Assembly: GCA_046726415.1 (NCBI GenBank)
Contig: JBKPAK010000238.1
Location: 1 to 14,300 of the forward strand
DNA length: 14,300 bases
Source of the DNA: Candidatus Methylomirabilota bacterium
Lineage (GTDB): Bacteria > Methylomirabilota > Methylomirabilia > Rokubacteriales > CSP1-6
Direction of reading: 5' to 3'
Made by a program: the position numbers and the translations under genes. Below the pieces are notes generated by a model that was not told where the DNA came from, ran no database searches, and saw nothing but the letters and a program-made list of their open reading frames with translations. Below, in pieces: positions 1 to 14,300 of the stretch; positions within the stretch are counted from its first letter, which is position 1; each line of letters opens with the position of its first letter.

Positions 1-1566
1 CACGAGGACACACAGAGGAGCGTGGAGCTGGGCCATCAGGAGCCGGAAACGCTCGGTGTGTCGATAGACGACATCGGCCTGCTGCCCCAGTCGCGCGGAC
101 AGCGCCGCGTGCGAGCGCGTCGCATCGACCTCGGAGATCGCCATCCGAATGCTCGGGGTCGGCTGGTTTCTCATCATCGGGGCGGCCACCAGGATCGCGT
201 CGCCCTCCCGGAGATCGCGCCCGCCCAGGTAGTCGACCTTCACATCGCGGCGGTCCTTCAGGACATGGAGATGCAGAGCCAACTCCGCGACGTATTCGTT
301 AGGATCGCTCAGGTTGACCAGAACGGTGCCGTGCCGGACCACTGCGGTCGCCAGGAAATCGACGAGGCGCTGATTGGCCGCGTCGATCGCGACCTGGAGA
401 CGGCCGTTCGTCAGCGCAGTGGCCAGGCTCAGGAACGCCAGCACCACGGTGAGGATCAGGAGGGTCCGGGCTACCATCCTGACGGCTCTCCTCGAGGCGC
501 CCAGCGACCGGACCACCGAGGCCATCCCGATCCCGGTCAGGGCGGAGACGCCAATGGCGGCCGGCAGTAGGTAGTACTCGAACGTGGAGTGCCACGGCAG
601 CATGATGAGAGTCCACGCGATGATCCAGAACACGGACACCAGGACCAACCAGGGGTCCGCGCGGAGACGGTGCCGCTCGCGCCACCACACGAAGGCCAGG
701 AGTGGCGCGAGGAGCGGGAAATCCCGGACGTACCAGGCGAGATGCCTCAGCGCGCTGGCCGCCAGGACCTGACCGCTCACCGCATAGTGATGCGAATCCC
801 CGCCGGCGCCGATGGCCGCCGTGCCCACGGCCGCGCGGACAGCCCAGAACAGCGCCGTGCCGGCCAGGTTCATGGCCAGACACCAGCGATCGATCCGCTC
901 GGCGCTGGGCTGGCGAGTGATTCCGGGCAAGCGCCGTAGCGCGATGACGCACAGCACGCTGACGACGAGCATCGCTTGGGCCGTCTCCTTGGTGAGATAG
1001 GCGAAGAGCAGCGCGAGCGCGCTCGCGGCCAGCAGACCCCGGCTTCGCCGGGGAGCCGTCTCCCACTGCGCGCGGGCTCCGGCCCAGCCACCCAGCGACA
1101 CGGCGAGCCACAGCGCGAGGGGGACCTCGGGTTTGGAGAGCGTGTAGTAATTCTCGACGACCGGAGGCGAGAGCAGATAGGCCAGGCCGCCGATGGCACT
1201 GGCGAGGGCATCTTTCGTGGCAAGGGCCACCGCCGCGGCCACCGCCAGCCCGGTCAACAGCAGCGCCACGCCGTTCGCGATGAAGAATCCCAGGGGACTC
1301 GGTCCCCACAGCGCGTACTGCAGGGCGTTGTGCACCCAGTACCACGGTCGAAAGCGCCCGCGATGCACCTCGAGGGTGAAGGGAAGGAGGGCATCAACCT
1401 GGCCCACGATACGCCGCGCGACCTCGATGGTGACGCCGTCGTCGAGAAGCCCGAAGTTCGGGCAGAGGAGTCTCGGCGTCATGACGACGACGGTCACCAG
1501 GCCGAGGAGCGCGGAGATGACGACCACGCGCCGACGGGCGATGGCGGTCAGTCCGTCGCTCGGCAA
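1..1566 (-). CDS. Polytopic membrane protein, probable GT-C fold glycosyltransferase (ArnT/PMT-like); 3' end outside window
   Basis: Hand translation gives a frame open from TTG at 1566 to base 1 (522 codons, no stop, hence absent from the ORF track). It has an N-terminal TM (VVVISALLGLVTVVVM), then PNFGLLDDG, GRFRPWYW, ENYYTLSKPE, AYLTKET and FEYYLLP, many hydrophobic helices and a soluble C-terminal part. An acidic DD after TM1 and a KE motif are typical of GT-C enzymes. Alternative start is ATG at 1482. Confidence 0.75.
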   Translation of the reverse strand, partial: MPSDGLTAIARRRVVVISALLGLVTVVVMTPRLLCPNFGLLDDGVTIEVARRIVGQVDALLPFTLEVHRGRFRPWYWVHNALQYALWGPSPLGFFIANGVALLLTGLAVAAAVALATKDALASAIGGLAYLLSPPVVENYYTLSKPEVPLALWLAVSLGGWAGARAQWETAPRRSRGLLAASALALLFAYLTKETAQAMLVVSVLCVIALRRLPGITRQPSAERIDRWCLAMNLAGTALFWAVRAAVGTAAIGAGGDSHHYAVSGQVLAASALRHLAWYVRDFPLLAPLLAFVWWRERHRLRADPWLVLVSVFWIIAWTLIMLPWHSTFEYYLLPAAIGVSALTGIGMASVVRSLGASRRAVRMVARTLLILTVVLAFLSLATALTNGRLQVAIDAANQRLVDFLATAVVRHGTVLVNLSDPNEYVAELALHLHVLKDRRDVKVDYLGGRDLREGDAILVAAPMMRNQPTPSIRMAISEVDATRSHAALSARLGQQADVVYRHTERFRLLMAQLHAPLCVLV

Positions 1567-2262
1567 TCAGTAGGCGAGGAAGGGCTCGGTGGCCGTTCGC
1601 ACCCGCACGAAGTACTCTTTGAAGCGCTCCGCCTCGTCCCCACTCACCATGTCCGAGACGAGGAAGCAGGCGAGATCACCGTGCCGCCACACCCACGTGG
1701 CAAAGCCGCTATCCTGCATGAGGATGGGCCGCCAGGCCCCCACGCTTATTCGCGCGCGATCCGGTAGCTTCAGCGCCGGCGCGGGAAGCGCCACGTACGT
1801 GATAAAACGGCCGGCGTGGTCGCGATAGTGCAGGGCCACCCCTCGCTCGCGCTCGAGATACACGGGCTCCGCATTCACCAGCCACAGCGTATCGTCTCCC
1901 GCGAAGACCCGAGCCAGGGCGATGCCCGACTCTTGCGTGAGCCACGACGAGGCCGTCGGCACGATGGTCGAGTTGCGCGCGCCCCACATGAGGGCACGGC
2001 TGTGCTCGCTCACCACCGCGCGCACCAGGCGCTGCACCGGATCGGGTCGATTGCTGGCCGGCAACCCCGGAAGCAAAAAGAGCACCACGAGGGCCGCGGT
2101 GGCCAGCGCGGCCACAATGGGGGCCATCCACACCGGCCGGTGTGACTCCCGAGGGGCGGCCACGATGGCCGCTCGCAGGTGGTGCGGCGCCGTGTAGCGC
2201 GGCAACTCGCTCTGGAGCCGGCGGCTGAGGGCCTCGTCGGAAAGATCGTGGGGCTCGCTCAT
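1567..2262 (-). CDS. Transmembrane anti-sigma factor (RsiW/PrtR-like)
   Basis: Overlaps the sigma stop by 4 bp (ATGA). Short N-terminal cytoplasmic part (APHHLRAAI), one TM (WMAPIVAALATAALVVLFLL) and a C-terminal domain with VALHYR...ITYV and W...GDLACFLVSD patterns resembling PrtR-type anti-sigmas. Confidence 0.8.
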   Translation of the reverse strand: MSEPHDLSDEALSRRLQSELPRYTAPHHLRAAIVAAPRESHRPVWMAPIVAALATAALVVLFLLPGLPASNRPDPVQRLVRAVVSEHSRALMWGARNSTIVPTASSWLTQESGIALARVFAGDDTLWLVNAEPVYLERERGVALHYRDHAGRFITYVALPAPALKLPDRARISVGAWRPILMQDSGFATWVWRHGDLACFLVSDMVSGDEAERFKEYFVRVRTATEPFLAY

Positions 2263-2771
2263 CGGCTGCGATAGTCGGGCAGGAGCCCGCGGAGCCTCTC
2301 CTTGGCCCGGAAGATTCTCGACTTGACGGTTCCGACAGGACAGCTCATGACCCGCGCCACTTCCTCCAGGGGCATTCCCTCGATCTCAGCGAGCAGCAGC
2401 ACGGTGCGGAATTCCTCGGGCAAGCGTCGCATGGCGCGTTCGAGATCCGTGTGCGCCTCCAGGACGCGCCCGGTCTCCTCCGGCGCGTCGTGGAACATCG
2501 GAACATCCCAGTCCGGAACGCCATCTTCTGCCAACGCGGACTCCCGTTCGCGCAGCCGGTAGAAGGTGAGGAATGTGTTCCTCAGGATCTGAAACATCCA
2601 GGCGCGGAGGTGGGTTCCCGGCTGGAAGCGGTGCGAAAACCGGAAGGCGCGCAGGTACGTCTCCTGCACGAGGTCTTCGGCATCCGAGGGATTGTGGGCG
2701 AGATACATCGCGAAATTGTAGAGGGCGTTGAGGTGCTGGAGGGCGTCATGCTGGAACTCGGGCGAGGCCAC
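2259..2771 (-). CDS. ECF-family RNA polymerase sigma-70 factor
   Basis: Region 2 DAEDLVQETYLRAFR...AWMFQILRN; region 4 LPEEFRTVLLLAEIEGMPLEEVARVMSCPVGTVKSRIFRAK; 170 aa, GTG start. Confidence 0.95.
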   Translation of the reverse strand: MASPEFQHDALQHLNALYNFAMYLAHNPSDAEDLVQETYLRAFRFSHRFQPGTHLRAWMFQILRNTFLTFYRLRERESALAEDGVPDWDVPMFHDAPEETGRVLEAHTDLERAMRRLPEEFRTVLLLAEIEGMPLEEVARVMSCPVGTVKSRIFRAKERLRGLLPDYRSR

Positions 2772-2774
2772 GCC

Positions 2775-3326
2775 TCAGCCCTCGAACCAGCGGCGCGGAT
2801 AGGGCGCCGGGCGTACGTCGTGCTCATCGCTCAGCGCTTCGAGAAGCTCCCGGATGGTCTTGTACTCGAGCGGATGCTCGAGGTCGGGGGCGATGTCCGC
2901 CAGAGGCCGGAGGACGAACCCGCGCTCGTGCAGGAGCAAGTGCGGGATCTGCAGCTCGTCCGGCACGCTCAGCACGAGGTCCTCGTAGAAGAGGATGTCG
3001 ATATCCACCGTACGGGGGACAAAGCGGCGCTCCTCCGGGGTGCCCGCGGGGCGCACCCGACCCAGCGCGGCTTCCATCTCCTGGAGGCGGCTGAGCAAGT
3101 CAGCGGGCGGGAGAGAGGTCTCGATGGCGATGACGCAGTTGAGGTGCCACGTCTGTTCGTGGAGTCCCGCCCCCGGCGTGCTCTCCCAGGGTTCGCTCTC
3201 GTACAGGGGTGAGGCGTCCACAATCTCCACGTCGCTCGTCGCCGCGAGCCGTTGGTAGACGGCGCGCAGCAAGGATAACCGCGCCTCGCCCGCGTTGGAG
3301 CCGAGACCCAGAAAGACGCGAGGCAT
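2775..3326 (-). CDS. folK: 2-amino-4-hydroxy-6-hydroxymethyldihydropteridine diphosphokinase (HPPK)
   Basis: FLGLGSN, SPLYESEP, PRTVDIDIL, LQIPH, ERGFVLRPL. Start moved to ATG 3326 (MPRVFL) to avoid overlap with folB. Confidence 0.95.
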   Translation of the reverse strand: MPRVFLGLGSNAGEARLSLLRAVYQRLAATSDVEIVDASPLYESEPWESTPGAGLHEQTWHLNCVIAIETSLPPADLLSRLQEMEAALGRVRPAGTPEERRFVPRTVDIDILFYEDLVLSVPDELQIPHLLLHERGFVLRPLADIAPDLEHPLEYKTIRELLEALSDEHDVRPAPYPRRWFEG

Positions 3327-3333
3327 TAGGGCG

Positions 3334-3690
3334 TCATCGGGCGCGCACCAGTTCGACGGCCGGGATGCCATGAATACCGCCGAGGGGCACCGTCAATTTG
3401 CGCACGCGTACGCGGACCTCGGGGGTCGGATACTCGCGCAACAGCATCTCCGCGATGAGACTGGCCAGTCGCTCCAGCAAGTTCACGCGACCTCCGGAGC
3501 CCAACTCCACGATCCGCCGAGCCACCTCACCGTAGTCGACGGTGGCCTGGAGATCATCGGACAAGGCGGCGGGGGCCAGGTCCAGGGCAAGCTCAACGTC
3601 CACCGAGAACCACATGCCGATGGTCTGCTCAGCCTTGGTCACGCCGTGGTGTCCGTAGAAGCGCACGTCCTCGAGCAGCAGCCGATCCAT
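3334..3690 (-). CDS. folB: Dihydroneopterin aldolase
   Basis: FYGHHGV..AE, SDDLQATVDY, NLLERLA, VRVRK. ATG 3690 preferred; GTG 3702 is possible. Confidence 0.93.
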   Translation of the reverse strand: MDRLLLEDVRFYGHHGVTKAEQTIGMWFSVDVELALDLAPAALSDDLQATVDYGEVARRIVELGSGGRVNLLERLASLIAEMLLREYPTPEVRVRVRKLTVPLGGIHGIPAVELVRAR

Positions 3691-3719
3691 GACAGGACCC
3701 ACGACGCGCCGGCGCGGGA

Positions 3720-4523
3720 TCAGGTCAGACCGAGGACGTCCTGCATCGAATACAGCCCGGGGGGCCGATCGGCCAGCCAGCGGGCCGCCCGTATGGCGCC
3801 GCGCGCAAAGGTGTCGCGGCTGTGCGCCCGATGGGTCAATTCGATCCGCTCGCCCAGCGTGCCAAATGACACGGTGTGCTCACCGACCACGTCGCCGGAG
3901 CGCAGGGACATGACGGCGATCTCTCGCCGGGTGCGCTCGCCGGGATGGCCTTGGCGTCCGTACACGGCCACCGAAGAGAAATCGCGACCCAGCGCCTCCG
4001 CGATGACCTCCCCCATGCGGAGCGCGGTTCCGCTGGGGGCATCCTTCTTGAAGCGATGGTGCGTCTCCACGATCTCGATGTCGTAGTCATCGCCGAGCGC
4101 GCGGGCCATCGTGGCGAGCAACGAGAAGGCAAGGGTGACCGCGACCGACATGTTCGGGGCGAGCAAGATCGCAGCCCGCCGGCCGAGGGTGGCGATCTCC
4201 TCGCGCTGGGCGCGACTGAAACCCGTGGTGCCGATCACCGCCCGCGCCCCGGCCGCCTCCACCAGCCGAAGGTGGGCGAGACTCGCTTCGGGGATGGAGA
4301 ATTCGATGAGAAGTCGCCCGCCCGTGATGGCGGCGGCCGCGTCGCTGGCAATGGGCACTCCGCGGGTACCGATTCCAGCCACCTCGCCGGCGTCGCGGCC
4401 GATGGCCGGTTGGCCGGGCGCCTCCAGAGCACCGACCAGGCGAAGATCATCGGCCTCGGTCAGACAGGCCACGAGACGGGACCCCATGCGGCCGGCGGCG
4501 CCGGCGACCACCACGTCGGTCAT
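3720..4523 (-). CDS. dapB: 4-hydroxy-tetrahydrodipicolinate reductase
   Basis: GAAGRMG, IGTTGF, APNMS, ETHHRFKKDAPSGTA, GEHTV, FARGA motifs. Confidence 0.97.
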   Translation of the reverse strand: MTDVVVAGAAGRMGSRLVACLTEADDLRLVGALEAPGQPAIGRDAGEVAGIGTRGVPIASDAAAAITGGRLLIEFSIPEASLAHLRLVEAAGARAVIGTTGFSRAQREEIATLGRRAAILLAPNMSVAVTLAFSLLATMARALGDDYDIEIVETHHRFKKDAPSGTALRMGEVIAEALGRDFSSVAVYGRQGHPGERTRREIAVMSLRSGDVVGEHTVSFGTLGERIELTHRAHSRDTFARGAIRAARWLADRPPGLYSMQDVLGLT

Positions 4524-4533
4524 AGCACTGCGG

Positions 4534-5418
4534 TTATTTCACGAGACCGTACGACTCCAGGATGCCGAGCAGCTTCTCGCGGTTGGCCTCGCCCATGCGG
4601 CACATGGGCAGGCGAAACTCCGGCTCGAGCATCCCGGCCATCGCCATTGCTTCCTTGATGGGGATTGGATTCGTCTCGAGGAAGGCCGCACGCGCCAGCG
4701 GGAAGAGCTTGTAGTGCAGCTCGCGCGCGCGCTTCCAGTCGCCGTCGAGCGCGGCGTGCACCATCTCCGCCGTTTCGCGCGGCACGATGTTGGCGATCAC
4801 GGAGATGACGCCGCGTCCCCCGATTGCCAGGAGCGGGAGCGTGATGTTGTCATCGCCGGAGAGCACGGAGAAATTCGGTCCGCAGGCCAGGATGACCTGG
4901 CTCATCTGATCCAGCGAGCCCGAGGCTTCCTTGACCCCTACGACGTTCCTGCAGTCGCGGGCGAGCCGGGCGAGCGTGTCTGTCTCCACGTTCACCGCGG
5001 TGCGGCTCTGGATGTTGTAGAGCAGGATGGGAATGGACGTGCTCTCGGCCACCGCCCGGAAGTGCTCGTACAACCCCCGCTGGGTTGGCTTGTTGTAATA
5101 CGGGTTCACGACCAAGGCGCCGGCGGCGCCCGCTCGCTCCGCGTGCCGGGTGAGATCGATGGCTTCCGCAGTGGAGTTGGAACCCGTTCCCGCGATGACG
5201 GGGATGCGCTTGCGCGCGGCGTCCACCACGATCTCGACCACATGCTTGTGCTCGTCGTGGCTCAGGGTTGGGGACTCACCGGTCGTACCGCAAGGGATGA
5301 GCGCATCGGTTCCGTGCCCGACGTGGAACTCGACGAGTTCCCGCAGCTTGGTGTCGTCGATCTGTCCGTGCCTGAACGGGGTTACCAGCGCCACAAACGA
5401 GCCCTGAAATGGCGTCAT
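4534..5418 (-). CDS. dapA: 4-hydroxy-tetrahydrodipicolinate synthase
   Basis: ALVTPF, GTTGESPTL, PYYNKPTQ, LYNI..RT, Schiff-base GVKEASG, SGDD, NPIPIK. Start ATG 5418 follows a GGGGAG Shine-Dalgarno; 294 aa. Confidence 0.97.
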   Translation of the reverse strand: MTPFQGSFVALVTPFRHGQIDDTKLRELVEFHVGHGTDALIPCGTTGESPTLSHDEHKHVVEIVVDAARKRIPVIAGTGSNSTAEAIDLTRHAERAGAAGALVVNPYYNKPTQRGLYEHFRAVAESTSIPILLYNIQSRTAVNVETDTLARLARDCRNVVGVKEASGSLDQMSQVILACGPNFSVLSGDDNITLPLLAIGGRGVISVIANIVPRETAEMVHAALDGDWKRARELHYKLFPLARAAFLETNPIPIKEAMAMAGMLEPEFRLPMCRMGEANREKLLGILESYGLVK

Positions 5419-5526
5419 CCTGTCGTCTCCCCGCCACTGGGACCTCGGCGGTCTGCCGGCGGCGCACTGGCTCATGATGGCCAAAAGATCACCAGCGCCC
5501 CGCGACACGCGTTCGCGCGAGCGCTC

Positions 5527-5546
5527 CCCTCTCCATGGGGGGAGGG
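5527..5546. repeat. Short GC-rich hairpin, REP-like (CCCTCTCC-ATGG-GGGGAGGG)
   Basis: 8-bp inverted repeat with one imperfect pair in the lipoprotein-dapA spacer. Resembles CCCTCTCCC..GGGAGAGGG-type intergenic palindromes. Single copy in this window. Confidence 0.4.
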
Positions 5547-5588
5547 TATCCATGTGCGCGTAAAGTCTGGCATTCGGCCCCGGTGAAG

Positions 5589-6656
5589 TCAAGGAACGCT
5601 GACGCTCGCCTCGTTAGAGTGGGCGCTCTCGTTGGCCCGCGAGCTGCCATCCTGGGCGGTCACCACGTATCGATAGCTTGCCGGCGCGACGCCCCGGTCC
5701 ACCAGGGTGGTGGCCGGGGCCGCGATAGAGCCCACGCGGGTGAATGTCCCCCGCGGATCAGCGCGATATACGACGTAGCGAGCGACGTCGGGATCTGGGC
5801 TCGCCGTCCACGAAAGCCGCACGTCCCCGGCGGCGGCAATCGCCACCAGGTCGCGCGGCGGTGCGGGTGGCGTGACGTCCACCGGGGTGGCCGTGATTCT
5901 CGCTGAGGGCGCGCCACGGGCGCTTCCGCCTTCATCCGCGCGGAGGGCCCGCACGGCATACGTGTACGTTTGGTCGTTGACGAGGCCGCGATCCACGAAG
6001 GTCGTCCCGCTGACGGGCGAGGGTGTGATCGGTTCCGGCGTTCCCTCCGCGCCGGCGGCGCGGAGCACTTCGTAGCTCAGCGTTCCCGTGACGGGATTTC
6101 CGTCCACGAGCTGGGCGGGCCGATCCCAGCGGAGCCGGACCTCGCCCTCTCCCGGCGTGGCCTCGACATCCTGAGGCGGGCCCGGCGGGGCGATGTAGGT
6201 CACGGACAGTCGGGTGGAAGGTGGGCTCACCCGGCCCTCTTTGTCCTCGACGAGCACCACGTACGTGTAGCGGCGGCCGTACGCCAATCCCTGCCGGTCG
6301 GGAAGCGCGACGCGCGAGCCGTCGACGGTGGCGGGCGCCGGGGCGGCCATCGGGACGCTGGCGATCTCCTCGTAGCCGGCGATTCGTCCACGACTCCGCA
6401 ACGCGGATTTGGGCTCACCCGTTCCGGCGTCGTCGACGCGAAACACGTGAGCGACGGCGAGATCGCGGATCACCGTGCCGTCGACGCGCCGCGTGGGATT
6501 GGTCCAGCTCAGCTCGATGAGCCCGTCGCCCGCCACCGCGTTCAACTCGGAGACCGGCAGGGGTTCGCGAAGCTGGGGCGCGACCGGCGGCCCCACCTTT
6601 CCGCAGGCGACGAGAAGGAGGAGAGTGGCGGCGGCGCCGAGGGCGCGCGCCGTCAC
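5589..6656 (-). CDS. Lipoprotein with about 3 fibronectin type III domains
   Basis: Signal peptide II with lipobox LLVA-C (Cys18), then GKVGPPVAP. Repeated FN3 signatures (IELSW, VRLRW, VRLSW; YTYVV, YTYAV, YRYVV). GTG start overlaps the argH stop (GTGA). Confidence 0.85.
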   Translation of the reverse strand: MTARALGAAATLLLLVACGKVGPPVAPQLREPLPVSELNAVAGDGLIELSWTNPTRRVDGTVIRDLAVAHVFRVDDAGTGEPKSALRSRGRIAGYEEIASVPMAAPAPATVDGSRVALPDRQGLAYGRRYTYVVLVEDKEGRVSPPSTRLSVTYIAPPGPPQDVEATPGEGEVRLRWDRPAQLVDGNPVTGTLSYEVLRAAGAEGTPEPITPSPVSGTTFVDRGLVNDQTYTYAVRALRADEGGSARGAPSARITATPVDVTPPAPPRDLVAIAAAGDVRLSWTASPDPDVARYVVYRADPRGTFTRVGSIAAPATTLVDRGVAPASYRYVVTAQDGSSRANESAHSNEASVSVP

Positions 6657-8029
6657 GCGTTGCCGACCAACGCTTGCGCGAGGGCGAGGGAGGCGCGCAC
6701 GGCATCGGGCGCGGTTCCGCCGGTCACCAACCGCGCGCGCAGCGAGGCCTCCACGGACATTGCGTCCACGACGTCCTGATCGATGAGGTCGGAGAAGCGG
6801 CGCAGCTCAGCCACCGACAGCTGCAGGAGATCTCGCCCCTGCTCGAGGCCATAGCGCACGATGCGCCCCACCACCTCGTGGGCCTCTCGGAACGGGAGCC
6901 CCTTGCGCACGAGATAGTCGGCGACGTCGGTGGCCGTGGCGAAGTTTTCACCAGCAGCCTGACGCATCCGTTCGGGGCGAAAGCTGAGCGTGGAGACCAG
7001 GGGGGGCAGGACGCTCACCATGGCGGCGAGCGTATCGACCGAGTCGAAGAGAGGTTCCTTGTCCTCCTGCAGGTCAGAGTTGTAGGCGAGGGGAAGGCCC
7101 TTCATGATGGTCAGCACGGCCATCAGGTTGCCGTAGAGTCGGCCGCTCTTGCCGCGGACCAGCTCGGCCACGTCGGGGTTCTTCTTTTGCGGCATGATCG
7201 ACGAGCCAGTGGCGAAGCCATCCGCCATCTCCACGAAGCCGAATTCCGCCGTGGCCCACAGCGTCAGGTCGGCGGCCAACCGCGAGAGGTGCATGCCGAT
7301 GATGGCCGCCGCGGCCAGAAACTCTAGGACGTAATCGCGATCGCTGACCGCGTCAAGGCTGTTGGGGGTCACCGAGGCGAAGCCGAGATCCGCGGCCAGG
7401 GCTTCGCGATCGATGGGGAATGCCGCCCCAGCGAGCGCGGCGGCTCCGAGGGGCAAAACGTCGGCGCGCGCTCGGCACGCGGCGACGCGTCCGCGGTCGC
7501 GGTCGAGCATGAAGACGTAGGCGAGCAAATGATGGGCGAGGAGGATGGGCTGCGCTCGCTGCAGGTGCGTGTAGCCCGGCATGGCGACGTCCACGCTCTC
7601 CGCGGCCCGGCCGATCAGCGCTCGCTGAATCTGACGCAGTCCGTCGTCCACGCCGTGACAGACGTCTTTGAGATACAGGCGCTCGTCAAGGGCAATCTGG
7701 TCGTTGCGCGATCGCCCGGTGTGGAGCTTGCCCCCGGCGGGGCCCACCAGTTCCACTAGGCGGCGCTCGATGTTGATATGGATGTCCTCCAGCTCCGGGC
7801 GGAAGGGGAACGTTCCGGTTTCCAGCTCTTCCCGAATGCGCATGAGTCCCTTCGCGATGCTCTCGTGCTCTGGCGAGCTGAGCAGACCGGTGCGGGCCAG
7901 GGCGCGGGCCCAGGCGAGGCTCCCCGCGATGTCATGTGACCAGAGGCGCCGATCGAAGGCCAGCGAGGCGGTGAAGCGCTCCGCTGCGGGATCGATGCCA
8001 GCCGCGAAGCGTCCACTCCAAGCTTTCAT
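6653..8029 (-). CDS. argH: Argininosuccinate lyase
   Basis: W.GRF N-terminus, EDIH, LHTGRSRNDQ, MPGYTHLQRAQP, signature GSSIMPQKKNPD, KGLPLAYNSDLQEDKE. Confidence 0.98.
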   Translation of the reverse strand: MKAWSGRFAAGIDPAAERFTASLAFDRRLWSHDIAGSLAWARALARTGLLSSPEHESIAKGLMRIREELETGTFPFRPELEDIHINIERRLVELVGPAGGKLHTGRSRNDQIALDERLYLKDVCHGVDDGLRQIQRALIGRAAESVDVAMPGYTHLQRAQPILLAHHLLAYVFMLDRDRGRVAACRARADVLPLGAAALAGAAFPIDREALAADLGFASVTPNSLDAVSDRDYVLEFLAAAAIIGMHLSRLAADLTLWATAEFGFVEMADGFATGSSIMPQKKNPDVAELVRGKSGRLYGNLMAVLTIMKGLPLAYNSDLQEDKEPLFDSVDTLAAMVSVLPPLVSTLSFRPERMRQAAGENFATATDVADYLVRKGLPFREAHEVVGRIVRYGLEQGRDLLQLSVAELRRFSDLIDQDVVDAMSVEASLRARLVTGGTAPDAVRASLALAQALVGNA

Positions 8030-8131
8030 GGTCGCGACCGGGCGCCAGCGGGCCTGAGCCGAGGATGGCCCGTTGTCGGCGCGCGGGACTTCGCACCGTT
8101 CGCCGATTCGTTGACCGGGTTCACCAAGGTA

Positions 8132-8806
8132 TCAAGCCGGAAGAAGGGCGGCGATGTCGCCCATGATTTTCTCGGTCACGTCGGCCCGAGTCAGCCGTGG
8201 GCCTGAACCATTGGCCGGGGCGAAGCGCCGCGCGGGGCCGAAGCGTACCCGCACCGGGTGCCGACGTGGAACGTAGAAACGCCGGCGACTGAGAGCCTCG
8301 TAGGTGCCACAAATGCCCGCGGCCACGACGGGTACGCGCGCGCGGAGCGCGAGCAACGCCACCCCCGGCAGCCCCCGCTCGAGCTGACCGCGCATGCTAG
8401 ACGGCCCTTCGGGAAAGATCCCCACGATGCGGCCTTCCTGAAGAGTGCGCAGAGCGCGGCGGAGCGCTCCCGCGTCAGGCCGTTCGAGATTGATGGGAAT
8501 GGAGCCGATGCCATCGTGGAAGAACGGATGGAGGGGGGTGGCGCGATACACGCGCGGCATCACGATGAACGCAATGGGCTCAGGGACGACGAGGCCGAGG
8601 ATCACGCCGTCTAGATAGTTGTGATGGTTTGCGGCGATGATGTAGGGCCCGCGGGCGGGCAGGTATTCGCTGCCCTCCACGGCGAGGGAGAAGAAGCGCG
8701 ACGCCCAGGGGCGCAGCCAAGACCGCAGCGTCTGGTACAGCGGAAGGGGTGGGGGAGGAGTGGCTCCGGCGTCCGCATCGGCAGGAATGGCCGTAGTGCG
8801 AGACAT
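8132..8806 (-). CDS. Lysophospholipid acyltransferase family protein (PlsC-like)
   Basis: IIAANHHNYLD (HX4D catalytic motif), GIFPEG, PVV..GI.GT, VRVRFG. Substrate uncertain because the acceptor motifs are divergent. Confidence 0.85.
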   Translation of the reverse strand: MSRTTAIPADADAGATPPPPLPLYQTLRSWLRPWASRFFSLAVEGSEYLPARGPYIIAANHHNYLDGVILGLVVPEPIAFIVMPRVYRATPLHPFFHDGIGSIPINLERPDAGALRRALRTLQEGRIVGIFPEGPSSMRGQLERGLPGVALLALRARVPVVAAGICGTYEALSRRRFYVPRRHPVRVRFGPARRFAPANGSGPRLTRADVTEKIMGDIAALLPA

Positions 8807-8817
8807 GCTCGCTCGCC

Positions 8818-8826
8818 CTTATAGCA
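8818..8826 (-). promoter_or_regulatory. Putative extended -10 element (TGcTATAAG) upstream of the acyltransferase
   Basis: Minus strand reads TGCTATAAG, an AT-rich patch ending 11 nt before the ATG. ATGACG 16 nt upstream could act as a -35. The last hexamer base is non-consensus. Confidence 0.4.
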
Positions 8827-8838
8827 CGAAAGACGCGC

Positions 8839-9015
8839 GCGTCATTGTACCAGGGACCGCCCGGCCGGCTTGGACCGCAGATGGCCGGTTCGGGGTGGCC
8901 GGGGCGTCATTGTACCGGGGACCGCGCGGCCGGCTTGGACCGCAGATGGCCGGTTCGGGGCGGCCTGGGCGTCATTGTACCGGGGACCGCGCGGCCGGCT
9001 TGGACCGCAGGTGGC
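8839..9015. repeat. 65-bp tandem direct repeat, about 2.7 copies
   Basis: Units start at 8839, 8904 and 8969 (GCGTCATTGTACC[A/G]GGGACCGC[C/G]CGGCCGGCTTGGACCGCAGATGGCCGGTTCGGGG..). Units 1 and 2 differ at 4 of 65 positions. Partial unit 3 matches unit 2 at 46 of 47 positions. Confidence 0.95.
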
Positions 9016-9042
9016 TGATCGGCGCACATGGTGTCGTCGGCG

Positions 9043-10044
9043 TTAGCCCCGTGGGCGCGTCAGGCGATAGCGGGTGACCGCGGCGTTGTGCTGCTCCAAG
9101 GTGGTCGAAAACTCGTGGCGCCGGTCGTCCATCGCGACGAAATAGAGGTACGGAACGGGAGCGGGGTCCAGCACCGCCTCGATGGACGACATTCCGGGGC
9201 TGGCGATTGGCCCGGGAGGCAGCCCGGGTTGGCGGTAGGTGTTGTAGGGATGGTCGGTATCGAGGTCGGCCCGCGTGAGCGTTCCACGCTGCCGGCGGAC
9301 GGCGTACTGGACCGTCGGGTCCGCCTGGAGGGGCATCGCGCGCTGGAGGCGGTTCCAGAAGACCGCCGCGATGAGTCGACGCTCCTCCGGCACCACAGCT
9401 TCCCGCTCCACGATGGAGGCCAGGGTGAGAAGCTGATGCACGCTCATCCCGCGCGCGGCGGCCCGGGCCACGATGTCCGGCGTGAGCTTCGTCCGCAGCC
9501 GCTGGACCATCCGGGTCAGGATCTCCTCCGGGGTCATGCCCCGCACGAACTGATAGGTGTCGGGAAAGAGATAACCCTCCAGGCGGGGAGCGTCGACCGC
9601 AAGGGTCCGGAGGAAGGGGGGGTCGCTGGCCGCCCGCTCGATGCCGTCGGCCGATGCGAGCCGCGACGCCTCCAGCGCACGCGCCAGCTCGGCCACCGTC
9701 GCACCTTCCGGATGGAGCACGACGTGCTGTCGCACCACGCCCGCCGCGATCCTCGACAGTACCGCGGGTGTGGCGGCTCCCTGTGGGAACTCGTACTCCC
9801 CGGGTTTGAGTCGGCGGGCCTGGCCGCCCAGCACGCTCAGGGCCATGAAGCCGACCGGGCTCCGAATCACCCCCGCCGCGCGCAGACGCTCGGCGATCGC
9901 GCGTAGACCCTCGTGCGGAGGGATCTCGACCACTCGGGGACCCCCCTCGATAGCGGCCGTCGGCGTGAACACCCGCCAGGCCTCGATGGCCAGGGCGACC
10001 ATGCCGAGGGCGAGGAGGGCTCCTAGCGCGACCCGCCACCGCAT
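9043..10044 (-). CDS. mltG: Endolytic transglycosylase MltG (YceG family)
   Basis: N-terminal TM, LKPGEY, LEGYLFPDTY, catalytic LASIVERE, NRL...LQADPTVQY, PYNTY..PGLPPGPIASPG, YLYFVA. Confidence 0.96.
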   Translation of the reverse strand: MRWRVALGALLALGMVALAIEAWRVFTPTAAIEGGPRVVEIPPHEGLRAIAERLRAAGVIRSPVGFMALSVLGGQARRLKPGEYEFPQGAATPAVLSRIAAGVVRQHVVLHPEGATVAELARALEASRLASADGIERAASDPPFLRTLAVDAPRLEGYLFPDTYQFVRGMTPEEILTRMVQRLRTKLTPDIVARAAARGMSVHQLLTLASIVEREAVVPEERRLIAAVFWNRLQRAMPLQADPTVQYAVRRQRGTLTRADLDTDHPYNTYRQPGLPPGPIASPGMSSIEAVLDPAPVPYLYFVAMDDRRHEFSTTLEQHNAAVTRYRLTRPRG

Positions 10045-10053
10045 GATTCGTCG

Positions 10054-10059
10054 AGTCTA
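10054..10059 (-). promoter_or_regulatory. Putative -10 hexamer (TAGACT) for mltG
   Basis: TAGACT ends 9 nt upstream of the mltG ATG; no Shine-Dalgarno is visible. Confidence 0.4.
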
Positions 10060-10087
10060 CATAGGGTGGGCCGCGGCGCGCCAGCTT

Positions 10088-10096
10088 TGTTATACT
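10088..10096 (+). promoter_or_regulatory. Extended -10 promoter (TGtTATACT) for rpoA
   Basis: Near-consensus TGnTATAAT match in the 97-bp divergent mltG/rpoA spacer, with no recognisable -35. Followed by a hairpin (10104-10120) and SD AAGGGGG (10130-10136). Confidence 0.65.
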
Positions 10097-10141
10097 GCGG
10101 GGTCGGGGCTTGGCGCCCCGGAATTCCTCAAGGGGGTCTTC

Positions 10142-11137
10142 ATGTTGGAGCTTGAGCTCCCCACCCGTCACGAATGGATCGCCCAGGAGCCGACCTACGG
10201 CAAGCTGGCCATCGACGCCTTCGAGGCGGGCTTTGCCCTGACCGTCGGCAATGCCTACCGCCGCGTGCTGCTGTCCGCGATCCACGGAGCGGCTCCGACC
10301 TGGGTGAAGATCGCGGGGGTCCTCCACGAGTTCTCGCACCTGCCGGGCGTGACCGAGGATACCCTCGACATCATGCTCAATCTCCGGAAGGTGGTCTTCA
10401 AGCTCCACGTGAACCGGCCTAAAATCTTGCGCCTAAAGGCCCAAGGGGTCGGCCTGGTCAAGGCGGGGGACTTCGAGGCCGATGCCGACGCGGAGATCCT
10501 CACCCCAGACATCGTGCTAGCCACGCTTGACAAGGACGGCTCGGTCGAGATGGAGGTCTGCGTCGAACGGGGGCGGGGCTACGCGGCCGCCGAGAAACGC
10601 GAGCCAGAGGCGCTCCCCATCCATGCCATTCTCCTCGACGCCGACTTCTCGCCCGTCACGCGGGTAAACCAGCATGTGGAGGAGTTGGAGGATGGGCGCG
10701 AGCGTTTGATCCTGGAGGTGTGGACCAACGGCGCTGTCACGCCGGCGGTGGCGGTGGCCGAGGCCTCTCGGCTGCTCGAGGACCATTTCGACCTCTTGAC
10801 CGAGTTCCCCGACGCAGCGCCGCCCGAGGAGACTGTGGAGGTGGGGGAAGAACCCCGCCCGCGCGCGGAGCTGAACGAAAACCTCTTCCGCAATGTAGAC
10901 GAGCTGGAGCTGTCCGTCCGGGCTTCCAACTGCCTCAAGACCGCCAACATCCGGACTATCGCGGACTTGGTGCAGAAGTCGGAGTCCGAGCTGCTCAAGA
11001 CCAAGAACTTCGGCAAGAAGTCCCTCAACGAGATCAAAACCATTCTGGGTGAGATGGGGCTAGCCCTGGGCATGCGGCTCGATCCCGAGGAGCTGGAGCG
11101 CCTGCGGGCCCAGTTCGAGAAGGCGTTCGAGGGGTAG
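10142..11137 (+). CDS. rpoA: DNA-directed RNA polymerase subunit alpha (stand-alone, divergent NTD)
   Basis: GNAYRRVLLS, GVLHEFS..PGV.ED, RGRGY, LDADFSPV, LEVWTNG; CTD VDELELSVRASNCLK...ELLKTKNFGKKSLNEI. Start ATG 10142 after an SD; 331 aa. Confidence 0.96.
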   Translation: MLELELPTRHEWIAQEPTYGKLAIDAFEAGFALTVGNAYRRVLLSAIHGAAPTWVKIAGVLHEFSHLPGVTEDTLDIMLNLRKVVFKLHVNRPKILRLKAQGVGLVKAGDFEADADAEILTPDIVLATLDKDGSVEMEVCVERGRGYAAAEKREPEALPIHAILLDADFSPVTRVNQHVEELEDGRERLILEVWTNGAVTPAVAVAEASRLLEDHFDLLTEFPDAAPPEETVEVGEEPRPRAELNENLFRNVDELELSVRASNCLKTANIRTIADLVQKSESELLKTKNFGKKSLNEIKTILGEMGLALGMRLDPEELERLRAQFEKAFEG

Positions 11138-11186
11138 GCGATCGAGCGCGCTCAGCGTTCGAGGGGCAGGCGAGGGAGCGCGCTCA
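11123..11186. repeat. 32-bp tandem duplication at the convergent rpoA/dapL junction
   Basis: 11123-11154 gcgttcgaggggtaggcgatcgagcgcgctca versus 11155-11186 gcgttcgaggggcaggcgagggagcgcgctca (29/32 identical). Each copy contains the palindrome GAGCGCGCTC. Confidence 0.9.
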
Positions 11187-12419
11187 GAGCCTGATCTGAC
11201 TCTTGATCCGCGCCACGGCCTCCTCCGTCTGCTCGCGCCCTCCGAATGCGGTGAGGCGGAAGTACCCCTCGCCGCTGGGCCCGAAGCCGGAGCCGGGCGT
11301 GCCAACGACATGGGCTTCGCCCAGGAGCTTGTCGAAGAAGTCCCAAGAAGACAGCCCGGCCGGGGTCTTGATCCAGATGTACGGTGCGTTGCGCCCCCCG
11401 TACACCGTCAGTCCCGCCGCCTCCACGCCTTCGCGAATGATCCGGGCATTATCCATGTAGAAGTCGACCAGGGTCCGCGCTTGGCGCTGCCCCTCGTCGG
11501 TGTAGACGGCGGCCGCGCCGCGTTGGATCACGTACGGCACGCCATTGAACTTGGTTGATTGACGGCGGAGCCACAGTGCATGCAGCTCCACGGCATCACC
11601 GACCGCAGTCCGCCCCACGACGTCTTTGGGCACCACCGTGAACGCGCAGCGGGTGCCGGTGAAACCGGCCGTCTTGGAGAAGCTCCGAAACTCGATGGCC
11701 ACCTCGCGCGCGCCTTCGACCTCGAAGATGGAGTGGGGGATGTCGGGATCGCGGATGTACGCCTCATAGGCCGCGTCGTAGAGCAGGATGGCGCCGTTCT
11801 CGCGCGCGTAGTCCACCCAGCGCTTGAGGGTAGTCCGGCTCATCACCGCGCCGGTCGGGTTGTTCGGGTAGCAGAGGTAGATGAGGTCGACCATGTCCGC
11901 GGGGAGGGCCGGCAGGAACTCGGTGTCGGCCGTGCACGGCAAATAGACGAACCGCTCGTAGCGCCCCGTCTCATCGGCATGGCCGGAGCGTCCGGCCATG
12001 ACGTTGCTGTCGACATAGACGGGGTACACCGGGTCGGTCAGGGCCACCACGGACTCCACTGAAAAGATCTCCTGAATGTTCCCGCTGTCGCTCTTGGCGC
12101 CGTCGCTCACGAAGATCTCGTCGGGGGCGATCGACACGCCGCGCGTCGCGTAGTCGTGCTTGGCGATCAGTTCGGTGAGGAACTCGTACCCGGGCTCGGG
12201 CCCGTACCCCCGGAATGTCTCGGGACGCGCCATCTCGTCGACGGCTTCGTGTAGTGCCCAGATCACCGCCGGCGGCAGTGGCCGAGTGACGTCGCCGATG
12301 CCGAGGCGGATGATCTTCGCGGAGGGGTGGGCGTCCTGAAAGGCCTTCACGCGCCGGGCGATCTCCGTGAAGAGGTAGCTGCTCTTGAGCTTCAGGTAGT
12401 GCTCGTTGATGCGCGCCAC
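11184..12419 (-). CDS. dapL: LL-diaminopimelate aminotransferase
   Basis: [56 protein letters not shown] lysine motif [29 protein letters not shown] at 12428-12433. Confidence 0.96.
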
Positions 12420-12468
12420 GAATATATCTCCTCGCGGGCGAGCGCCATCGGGTCGCCGCGCCCCGATT

Positions 12469-14300
12469 CTAGCAGATCGTTTCGGGATCGAGGCAGTAGC
12501 GGTCGTGGCGTCGAGACGCCCAGGTCGTCACCTTGAGTGAGCGCCCATCGGTCTCGAAAATGACCGCGCCGTCGCGATCGGTTCGATAGATCGTGGCCCC
12601 CGCCCGAACGAGGCGCGCGATGACTTCGGGACTGGGGTGGCCATAGGTCCCGCGCGTCCCCACGGAGATCACCGCGATCAGGGGTCGGACGGCCGCGAGG
12701 AACTCACTCGTCGTGGAACCGCGGGCGCCGTGGTGCGCGACTTTGAGCACGGTGGCCGCGAGGGGAGTCCTGCGCCGCAGCAGCCCGCTTTCGGTCCGCG
12801 CGGTGATATCAGACGCCAAGAGGAAGGACGCGAAGCCCAGCTCGAGTCTCAGGGCCAAGGCGGCGTCGTTCCGAGTCCGAGCATCGTGGCCGGCCACGAC
12901 CAGGGAGGGGTCGCTCAGTGCCGTGACCTCGATACCCCCCAGATGAGCTCGGGACAGGGTCTCAGCGATCCCTGAGTCGGCCACGCGGAAACGACGCCGG
13001 ATGGCCGCCATCCCGCCGGCGTGGTCGAGATCCGCGTGGGTGACCACCGCCGCGGCGAGCGAGAGGTGGCCGCGATTCCAGAGAAACGGCGCGACCACCC
13101 GTTCACCGGTGTCGAGCCTGTGGGGGCCGCCGGGCCCAGCATCGATCACTGCGGCGCGTCGGTCGGGAGTCTCCACGACGATGGCATCGCCTTGACCGAC
13201 GTCGAGCACGGTGATGCGAAGCTGGCCATCGCCGGGCCGGATGATCGGCCAGACCTCGAGCGCGGCGGCGGTTAGGAAGAGCATTGCGGCGGAGGTGGCG
13301 AACGCCCAGGCACGCCCCGCCGGATTAGCGCGCCTCTTCCACGCGAACAGTGCGAGCCCGAGCGCGCTCGCGTAGGCCATCACTGCCGTCCACGGCGGGG
13401 CGGGGAGGTGGATCACCGCGCCGGGTACAGACGCGGCCACCATGACGACGGCTCGGAGCGCGACGAGCACCGGCCACGCGGCGTTGAGGAGGAGGTTGCC
13501 CCCGGAGGCGGCGATCATGGCGAGTGCAGTACCAGCCAGGCCGACGATCGTTGCCATTCCCGCCAGCGGCACCACGGCGAGGTTGGCGATCACGCCGATG
13601 GTAGAGACCTGATTGAAGTGGAAGAGGGTGACCGGCAGCACGGCCAGTTGGGCGGCCACGCTGACGGCCAAAGCGCCGAGAAGTATGCTCCGGGGCAGTG
13701 GCATCAGGACAATTCCCACGGTAGCGGCGAACGAGAGCTGGAAGCCGGGATCGAAGAGATCTCCGGGGCGCACGGCCAGGACGATGAGCGCGGCGAGGGC
13801 GAGGCTATTCAGCACGGAAGGCTCGCGCTCGAGCAGGATGGCGCCGAGCACGAGCACCCCCATGATGGTGGCCCGTAGCACCGACGGCTCCGGCCCGACC
13901 ACGAAGGCGAAGCCGATGACCGCCACTATCGCCGCCGTCGCCGCCACCCGGCGGCCCGCTCGGGCCACCACGAGCAACGTGAAAACCGAGGAGGCGAGGA
14001 GGACAACATTGAAACCGGAAACGGCGAGCACGTGATACACGCCGGCGCGGCGGAAGGCATCGGTGAGGTCGTGCGGGAGGGTTGTCCGATCACCCAGCAG
14101 CAGACCACCGAGGAGCGCTGCCGAGGTCGGGGGCAACGCCTCGCGCATGACGTCCAGTGCGCGGCGCTTGACTCGCACCGGCCACGGAGGAGTTGGGTCA
14201 TCGAGTGGCACGACCCGATCGGCGCGCCCCGTGCCGACCACGTGAATGCCCTCGCGCGCGAGGTACGCCCCGTAGTCGAAGACGCCCGGGTTGCGAAAGC
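12469..14300 (-). CDS. comEC: DNA uptake channel ComEC/Rec2 (5' end outside window)
   Basis: Frame stays open upstream of 14241 to the window edge ([18 protein letters not shown], the ComEC NPG.FDY motif). Competence domain [25 protein letters not shown] domain [28 protein letters not shown]. Confidence 0.95.

Follow-up and report, generated by a model that had tools for sequence, protein, structure and literature searches.

The stretch analysed here (the window, 14,300 nucleotides, nt: positions 1 to 14,300 of the forward strand of contig JBKPAK010000238.1, assembly GCA_046726415.1, Candidatus Methylomirabilota bacterium, order Rokubacteriales) carries a complete rpoA gene, encoding RNA polymerase's alpha subunit, beside a divergent mltG gene and with a comEC-like gene further downstream. 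This stand-alone copy, named S, lies outside the rpsD–rplQ slot, which is taken by a paralog of the same genomes, the ribosomal-operon rpoA named O. The two copies are retained together across Rokubacteriales and differ in that the tip of the beta-hairpin in domain 1 is lost in S whereas the C-terminal domain is lost or altered in O, a pattern that may reflect a polymerase built on two non-identical alphas.

The S protein matches the Rpb3/Rpb11-type dimerisation domain (PF01193, 59 bits), the insert domain (PF01000, 102 bits) and the alpha C-terminal domain (PF03118, 90 bits) of Pfam, and scores above the cut-offs of three NCBIfam rpoA equivalog models (NF003513, 366 against 302; NF003519, 326 against 277; TIGR02027, 312 against 228), on which it also exceeds the O copy (299, 296 and 286 respectively). 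Only alpha chains were found among the matches of a Foldseek search with the S model, and the protein is 65-89% identical across Rokubacteriales. The preliminary description of this DNA had reported that the equivalent of the beta-binding Arg45 is retained in the GNAYRR motif, which proved correct: R41 aligns with E. coli R45, and the Arg45 equivalent is present in each of the 30 S and 21 O copies compared and is invariant in alignment A1. The partner paralog predicted in the same description was found on contig C112 of the window's own genome (G000; 7.6 Mb in 352 contigs, 98% complete). This second alpha gene is 43% identical to S, stands in the ribosomal operon in the order rpsM-rpsK-rpsD-rpoA-rplQ, and encodes a loop that reads VEMSRLGKITDYEKL with the full motif present. 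A single rpoB and a single rpoC accompany the two alpha genes in this genome.

The hairpin of S had been described at the outset as carrying a four-residue deletion with loss of the Arg191-containing motif, and both stand when the protein is aligned with E. coli K-12 rpoA from NC_000913. The E. coli tip is R191-V-E-Q-R-T-D-L-D-K200, with R191 in AARVEQ and K200 in DKL; between VE188 and V202 there are 13 residues in E. coli and 9 in the S protein of the window, and the four-residue gap is placed here in all four printed phmmer alignments with Protein Data Bank (PDB) chains (7ye1_A, 8i23_A, 7l7b_A and 6wvj_A). Equivalents of R191, V192, Q194, T196, D197 and L198 are missing, and of the tip only positions 199-200-201 are retained, as E-R-L (K200 replaced by R). 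An AlphaFold2 (AF2) model of S, with a mean predicted local distance difference test score (pLDDT) of 68 and about 85-90 in the hairpin, shows strands 172-181 and 187-195 intact and a five-residue turn between them. R191 of E. coli alpha had been named at the outset as an assembly-mutant site; a literature search on rpoA101/rpoA112 gave nothing of use on this.

The segment from DADFSP to WTNGAV is uniformly 38 residues long among canonical copies, whereas its length ranges from 33 to 41 among full-length S copies. The S loop is four residues shorter than the canonical one in the window's family and three longer in some other S copies, and the conserved E-R-L always follows it. The clade-wide change in S is a loss of the motif with relaxed length, not a fixed deletion of four residues. 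A truncated S-type row from a related metagenome-assembled genome (MAG; row L101) ends at '...RLVFEVF' in the hairpin region, with 29 residues in this segment; the gene is broken or frameshifted, or the contig is at fault.

In an alignment of 147 non-identical alpha open frames, the motif, taken as R-[VL]-G-xx-[TIV]-D-[YF], was present in 0 of 95 S rows, 21 of 21 O copies, 30 of 30 copies from the sister orders and the one Nitrospiraceae relative. Its residues are invariant among the O copies of alignment A2, and the sole alpha found in f2, one of the families within Rokubacteriales labelled f1 to f5, retains it. The deletion, for which it had been asked whether it marks a clade or a paralog, is paralog-specific by these counts; the same deletion was also looked for in single-copy rpoA of the lineage, and not found. 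Among 136 alpha representatives of other lineages the motif is present in 120 and absent in about 15, one further flagged row being a misalignment.

Of the 151 Methylomirabilota genomes at least 85% complete that were searched with TIGR02027, 110 belong to Rokubacteriales (f1, f4, f5, plus G000), and 93 of these had at least two matches. The 41 genomes from sister orders of the same class had one match in 35 cases, two in 5 and none in 1. Of those five with two matches, G079, G128 and G148 were set aside as containing pieces of one gene and G061 as probably contaminated with a Rokubacteriales operon contig, so that G129 is the sole one with a real second copy. The alpha on contig C358 of G033 was also rejected as a second copy, the contig being probably foreign, with an rplQ only 52% identical. 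Nine Rokubacteriales genomes with one copy were checked: rpsD was also missing or cut at a contig end in 4/4 'S-only' genomes, mltG was missing or the contig ended just past it in 5/5 'O-only' genomes, and no case of real loss of S or O was found among the nine. The S–O pair is retained order-wide in Rokubacteriales. Five unpublished genomes contribute to these counts: G011 supplies a row to the 95 of S and belongs to the 'S-only' genomes checked, G078 and G139 supply two of the 30 sister-order rows, and G087 and G114 enter the TIGR02027 tallies only. The conclusions stay the same when all five are left out.

Some S-type genes were met in unusual settings. One MAG holds two of them on different contigs (L088, L034), the L088 gene without the usual neighbours, and may be a mixed bin or hold a further copy. 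S-type genes with Rokubacteriales synteny also occur in bins labelled Gaiellaceae, Binatia, Verrucomicrobiia or Acidoferrum (L036, L067, L069, L071, L077), which are probably mis-binned contigs. In G001, of the same genus as the window, the S match is divided into two pieces that overlap, one covering residues 1-59 and the other 52-330 (G001:C10:87487-88475; L023); this split gene is a frameshift or an assembly error.

Both S and O are under constraint, and all the genes examined are open frames except two S copies (G001 and L101). S is the slower-evolving, more conserved copy: pairwise identity of the N-terminal domain is 0.71 for S and 0.63 for O, the S value being the larger for 89 of 91 genome pairs, that of the C-terminal domain is 0.935 against 0.758, and N-terminal-domain identity to sister-order alpha is 0.49 against 0.42.

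In all 30 S copies compared, the C-terminal domain retains the equivalents of E. coli R265, N268, C269, G296, K298, S299 and E261. Among the O copies, the 11 with this domain (f1, f5) keep R265, N268, G296, K298 and S299, with E261 changed to P, S or D, C269 to A and K297 to E, and V264 changed as well. All of the ten O copies sampled from f4 are 247-255 amino acids (aa) long and end after the N-terminal domain, and those of G035 (f4) and G026 (f3) likewise have no C-terminal domain. PF03118 is matched once, in the S gene, in each of four near-complete f4 genomes, and twice in G000. Since rplQ comes directly after the 249-aa operon alpha gene of G034, the C-terminal domain is absent there and not split off. 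The reciprocal loss that had been anticipated for the other copy is consequently found in part: O is changed in its C-terminal domain (diverged in f1 and f5, absent in f3 and f4), and no second N-terminal motif is lost. The N-terminal domains do show paralog-specific residues, E. coli R33 being P, A or S in S and K in O, L43 being Y or F and K86 being R in S, and S50 being I, A or V in O. As an observation on the truncated proteins themselves, L153-L162, L199 and L200 (f4, f3) are natural operon-encoded alphas of about 237-255 aa without the C-terminal domain, and the f3 copy L199 looks shorter in domain 2 too, around WAKIEGVKGDTTEFLLNLK.

In the trees, the S clade (support 99) and the O clade (support 100) are each monophyletic, with inner branching that mirrors the families and stem lengths of 0.41 for S and 0.77 for O. 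The two are joined weakly (82), and an approximately unbiased (AU) test did not reject S, O and the sister orders as one clade (p = 0.309). The most likely origin of S is duplication of the lineage's own rpoA, transfer being the alternative. In the f2 genome G025 the operon alpha combines the motif with a canonical C-terminal domain and branches as sister to the O clade (support 100), and the syntenic purA-mltG-plsC-argH locus holds no S gene in this one f2 genome, 73% complete. Gene content and branching here suggest that S was gained after f2 branched off and that decay of the O C-terminal domain came later.

The sister-order genome G129 carries its second alpha on contig C3 (L187, 1549-2727, minus strand; also L193). 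The gene stands 4 kb downstream of the ribosomal operon, after a second rpsK, and its product has the loop VEPLKPGDLLHRERL, in which the motif is missing. When the loop columns were left out of the alignment, this alpha was placed with the representative P0024 (99), next to the sister-order clade and not with S. Because this copy is outside the S clade, the same tip was lost independently in another duplicate.

Taken together, each paralog is without something that nearly all bacterial alphas have, and the full set is present only in the S–O pair, which argues for an oriented heterodimer; with a single beta and a single beta', an S–O heterodimer is also the most economical reading. We infer from these gene comparisons that the order-wide pair would support a core enzyme built on this heterodimer, in which S would face beta and O would face beta', and regard the chances of this being right as about even. 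An alpha gene would have been added beside mltG after the f2 split, and the two copies would then have lost different things, S keeping its canonical C-terminal domain and Arg45 and losing the domain-1 hairpin tip (E. coli 191-198), O keeping the tip invariant while its C-terminal domain diverged (f1, f5) or was deleted (f3, f4). S would occupy the beta side (alpha-I), where the hairpin tip would be dispensable, and O the beta' side (alpha-II), where the E. coli hairpin re-orders into the beta'-binding groove. The f3/f4 enzyme would consequently carry a single alpha C-terminal domain, on its beta-side protomer.

The proposed orientation leans on work with E. coli. Which protomer uses the loop had been considered beyond what the window can tell, and the E. 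coli literature points to the beta'-side protomer (PMC3294249; PMC13202282). In E. coli alpha, residues 30-55 and 65-75 are protected by beta and residues 175-185 and 195-210 by beta', and two-residue insertions at positions 180 and 200 abolish beta' binding and not alpha2-beta formation (PMC3294249). Residues 186-201 of the beta'-side alpha re-order on beta' binding into a longer 180-192/195-207 hairpin, which together with helix 34-50 narrows the beta'-binding groove (PMC13202282). What S is missing is this hairpin's tip.

Several points weigh against an S–O heterodimer with this orientation. S keeps both hairpin strands and positions 199-201 as E-R-L, and might still bind beta'. R45 is kept by both paralogs and their dimer-interface residues are alike (F/Y35, T38, V39, V46, H227), so that homodimers could still form. 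The O copy of the window's family still has a C-terminal domain with R265, N268, G296, K298 and S299, so that the reciprocal loss is incomplete there. The tip is not universally indispensable, given the roughly 15 of 136 other-lineage alphas without the motif. As to history, the trees are compatible with both duplication and transfer for the origin of S, and the f2 evidence comes from a single genome that is 73% complete. Finally, assembly determinants differ between E. coli and B. subtilis (PMC13202282), so that the E. coli rules may not transfer.

The alternative that survives best, and which we nevertheless consider unlikely, is that S and O each homodimerise with the same beta and beta' to give two polymerases for different promoter classes or conditions, one population having two canonical C-terminal domains and the other diverged ones or none; a variant is a statistical mixture of S2, SO and O2. 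It agrees with the retention in both copies of R45, K/R86, K/R200 and similar dimer-interface residues, with the two hairpin strands of S in the AF2 model, and with the position of S outside the operon, which makes separate regulation possible; several core species have also been raised for Francisella (PMC1891329, as given in the abstract of PMC3294249). An S homodimer would, however, be without the tip at both positions, although the motif is kept in 120 of 136 other alphas and in all O and sister-order copies, and an O homodimer in f3/f4 would have no alpha C-terminal domain at all. Complementary losses are moreover the pattern of subfunctionalised partners, as argued for Francisella (PMC3294249).

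It is less probable still that the tip loss is neutral, S and O being interchangeable at both positions, the duplicate being kept for dosage or regulation, and loss of the O C-terminal domain being tolerated because S supplies that domain. The S loop, free both in length (33-41 against 38) and in sequence, does look more like relaxed constraint than like a new function, the motif is also missing in the roughly 15 other-lineage representatives, and the plasticity of alpha interfaces is illustrated by B. subtilis alpha dimers that bind beta or beta' first (PMC13202282). Interchangeability is nevertheless hard to reconcile with the split between the copies, the motif being invariant in all 21 O copies and missing from all 95 S rows, over four families at least (f1, f3, f4, f5), the sole f2 genome, in which no S copy was seen, standing outside it; the independent duplicate in G129 has lost the same motif as well. 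That only one copy is a real subunit, with O decaying or S a foreign or moonlighting alpha-like protein, finds some encouragement in the faster evolution of O, the loss of its C-terminal domain in two families and the lack of a firm grouping of S with O, but is very improbable in view of the open O frame in 21 of 21 genomes with its conserved operon place and invariant assembly residues, the passing of three NCBIfam rpoA cut-offs by S and its 65-89% identity across the order, and the presence of both copies wherever assemblies allow.

A bolder form of the S–O heterodimer reading can be offered tentatively, with the odds somewhat against it. The polymerase would then be obligately asymmetric, with a tip-less beta-side S bearing a working C-terminal domain and a hairpin-bearing beta'-side O; in f3/f4 it would read upstream promoter DNA and activators via a single tethered domain on one defined protomer, and tip trimming, as in G129, might be a repeatable first step after alpha duplication.

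The features of the S gene and its surroundings are collected in Table 1. The S gene is flanked by dapB-dapA-orf-argH-plsC-mltG and, at its other end, by comEC, and among 79 related S loci mltG is adjacent in 71, comEC in 63 and the aminotransferase gene in 33, the mltG/comEC arrangement including family f4. The promoter of the S gene presumably lies inside the spacer to mltG; a promoter and terminator scan of 9900-11400 gave no promoter-like and no terminator-like site, with no sigma-70 consensus in the spacer. No RNA genes were found by Rfam and tRNA scans of the window. The soil metatranscriptome X19 does not show transcription of S: its contigs are short, 90-95% alike and mostly from the conserved C-terminal domain. 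Two pieces, 87 and 98 nt long and with one mismatch each, map to 11009-11163.

Table 1. Features of the stand-alone rpoA gene and of its neighbours, in window positions
Feature	Position	Strand	Remarks
S-copy rpoA paralog	10142..11137	+	331 aa and stop; full alpha with N-terminal domain, linker and C-terminal domain
R40-R41 in GNAYRR (residues 36-41)	10259..10264	+	Equivalent to E. coli R44-R45; R41 = beta-binding arginine R45
Domain-1 beta-hairpin, residues 172-195	10655..10726	+	E. coli 180-207; both strands present, tip shortened (AF2 model; alignment)
Segment VEELEDGRERL, residues 179-189	10676..10708	+	Inside SPVTRVNQHVEELEDGRERLILEVWTNG
Turn LEDGR	10685-10699	+	In place of the canonical R-V-G-Q-x-T-D-Y tip, 4 residues shorter
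Alpha C-terminal domain	10871..11050	+	PF03118, 93.7 bits; aligned E. coli R265, N268, C269, G296, K298, S299 and E261 canonical
mltG–S-gene spacer	10045..10141		97 bp, between divergent genes
mltG (YceG family, PF02618)	9043..10044	-	Conserved divergent neighbour of the S gene; context, not a polymerase part
Aminotransferase gene	11184-12419	-	Between the S gene and the comEC-like gene in the window's family
comEC-like gene	12469..14298	-	Runs past the window end; conserved downstream neighbour

Elsewhere in the window, an extracytoplasmic function (ECF)-type sigma factor gene (Sigma70_r2 and r4_2) lies at 2259-2771 on the minus strand. After it on that strand comes an open frame of 231 aa without a Pfam match (1567-2262), which could be the anti-sigma factor of this sigma. 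Another open frame without a Pfam match, of 355 aa (5589-6656, minus strand), is situated between dapA and argH and keeps that place in 50 of the 79 related loci. Three proteins of unusual build were also encountered. In P0008, a metagenomic protein of 1031 aa, 12 separate stretches match the query's alpha C-terminal-domain region, and the protein looks like a chain of repeated modules of that kind. In the alpha-like proteins P0006 (569 aa) and P0009 (526 aa) the match to the query begins at about residue 220-266, so that both have long N-terminal extensions or fusions; P0009 is also without the hairpin motif.

A literature search, to which subscription journals and supplements were closed, found no report of the Rokubacteria rpoA pair. 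According to PMC3294249, no studied bacterium other than Francisella has a polymerase that departs from a pair of identical alphas, and further cases of duplication and subfunctionalisation are predicted there; Francisella is not mentioned in the accessible portion of a 2026 review of alpha-like subunits (PMC13374769). If correct, the S–O heterodimer would add another case, independent of the first and much broader, since it would extend over an abundant order of soil bacteria. It would offer a natural test of which alpha position needs the 186-201 hairpin, of life with one alpha C-terminal domain, and of the route from symmetric alpha dimers to the asymmetric archaeal and eukaryotic pairs. 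In addition, rpoA is used as a single-copy marker, and it is not single-copy in Rokubacteriales.

The Francisella alpha1/alpha2 pair (PDB 6wmp, chains A and B) resembles S and O in several respects (PMC3294249): two non-identical rpoA genes, one operonic and one elsewhere, are present lineage-wide, the paralogs carry complementary changes in beta/beta' determinants, both Francisella paralogs sit on long branches, to which the stems of S and O (0.41 and 0.77) may correspond, and the hairpin-altered copy (alpha1, K200T in the 190-200 hairpin) keeps Arg45, like S. The two systems also differ. By the same account, alpha2 has Gln at position 45, whereas S and O both keep Arg45, and the hairpin-altered copy is operonic in Francisella but stand-alone in Rokubacteriales. 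The asymmetry in Rokubacteriales lies instead between the hairpin tip, lost as a whole (191-198) in S, and the C-terminal domain, lost or altered in O and wanting in two families, and the pair belongs to an order of uncultured soil bacteria. Lineage-specific second rpoA genes are likewise described for Chloroflexus species and Streptomyces avermitilis, but those paralogs were reported to differ by no drastic substitution in the regions for dimerisation or for beta/beta' contact and to be possibly equivalent (PMC3294249), whereas S is without a conserved assembly motif and O has lost or altered its C-terminal domain.

Francisella has no counterpart to the natural operon-encoded alpha without a C-terminal domain. 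In work from the Ishihama laboratory, a truncation of E. coli alpha after residue 235 reportedly still assembles into core, and with oriented R45A heterodimers, polymerases with one C-terminal domain on a defined protomer can reportedly be built. Those are laboratory constructs, whereas in f3/f4 a natural operon gene encodes the truncated alpha. R45A alpha chimeras are mentioned in PMC13202282.

Rpb3/Rpb11, AC40/AC19 and archaeal Rpo3/Rpo11 are likewise asymmetric pairs, one partner making the beta-like and the other the beta'-like contact, arisen by duplication and partitioning (PMC3294249; PMC13374769). They differ in that Rpb11 is without domain 2, neither partner has an alpha C-terminal domain, and extra small subunits are needed (PMC3294249; PMC13374769), whereas S and O both have full bacterial alpha N-terminal domains. 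Should the obligately asymmetric polymerase proposed here be real, the Rokubacteriales pair would represent a living bacterial stage on the path to Rpb3/Rpb11.

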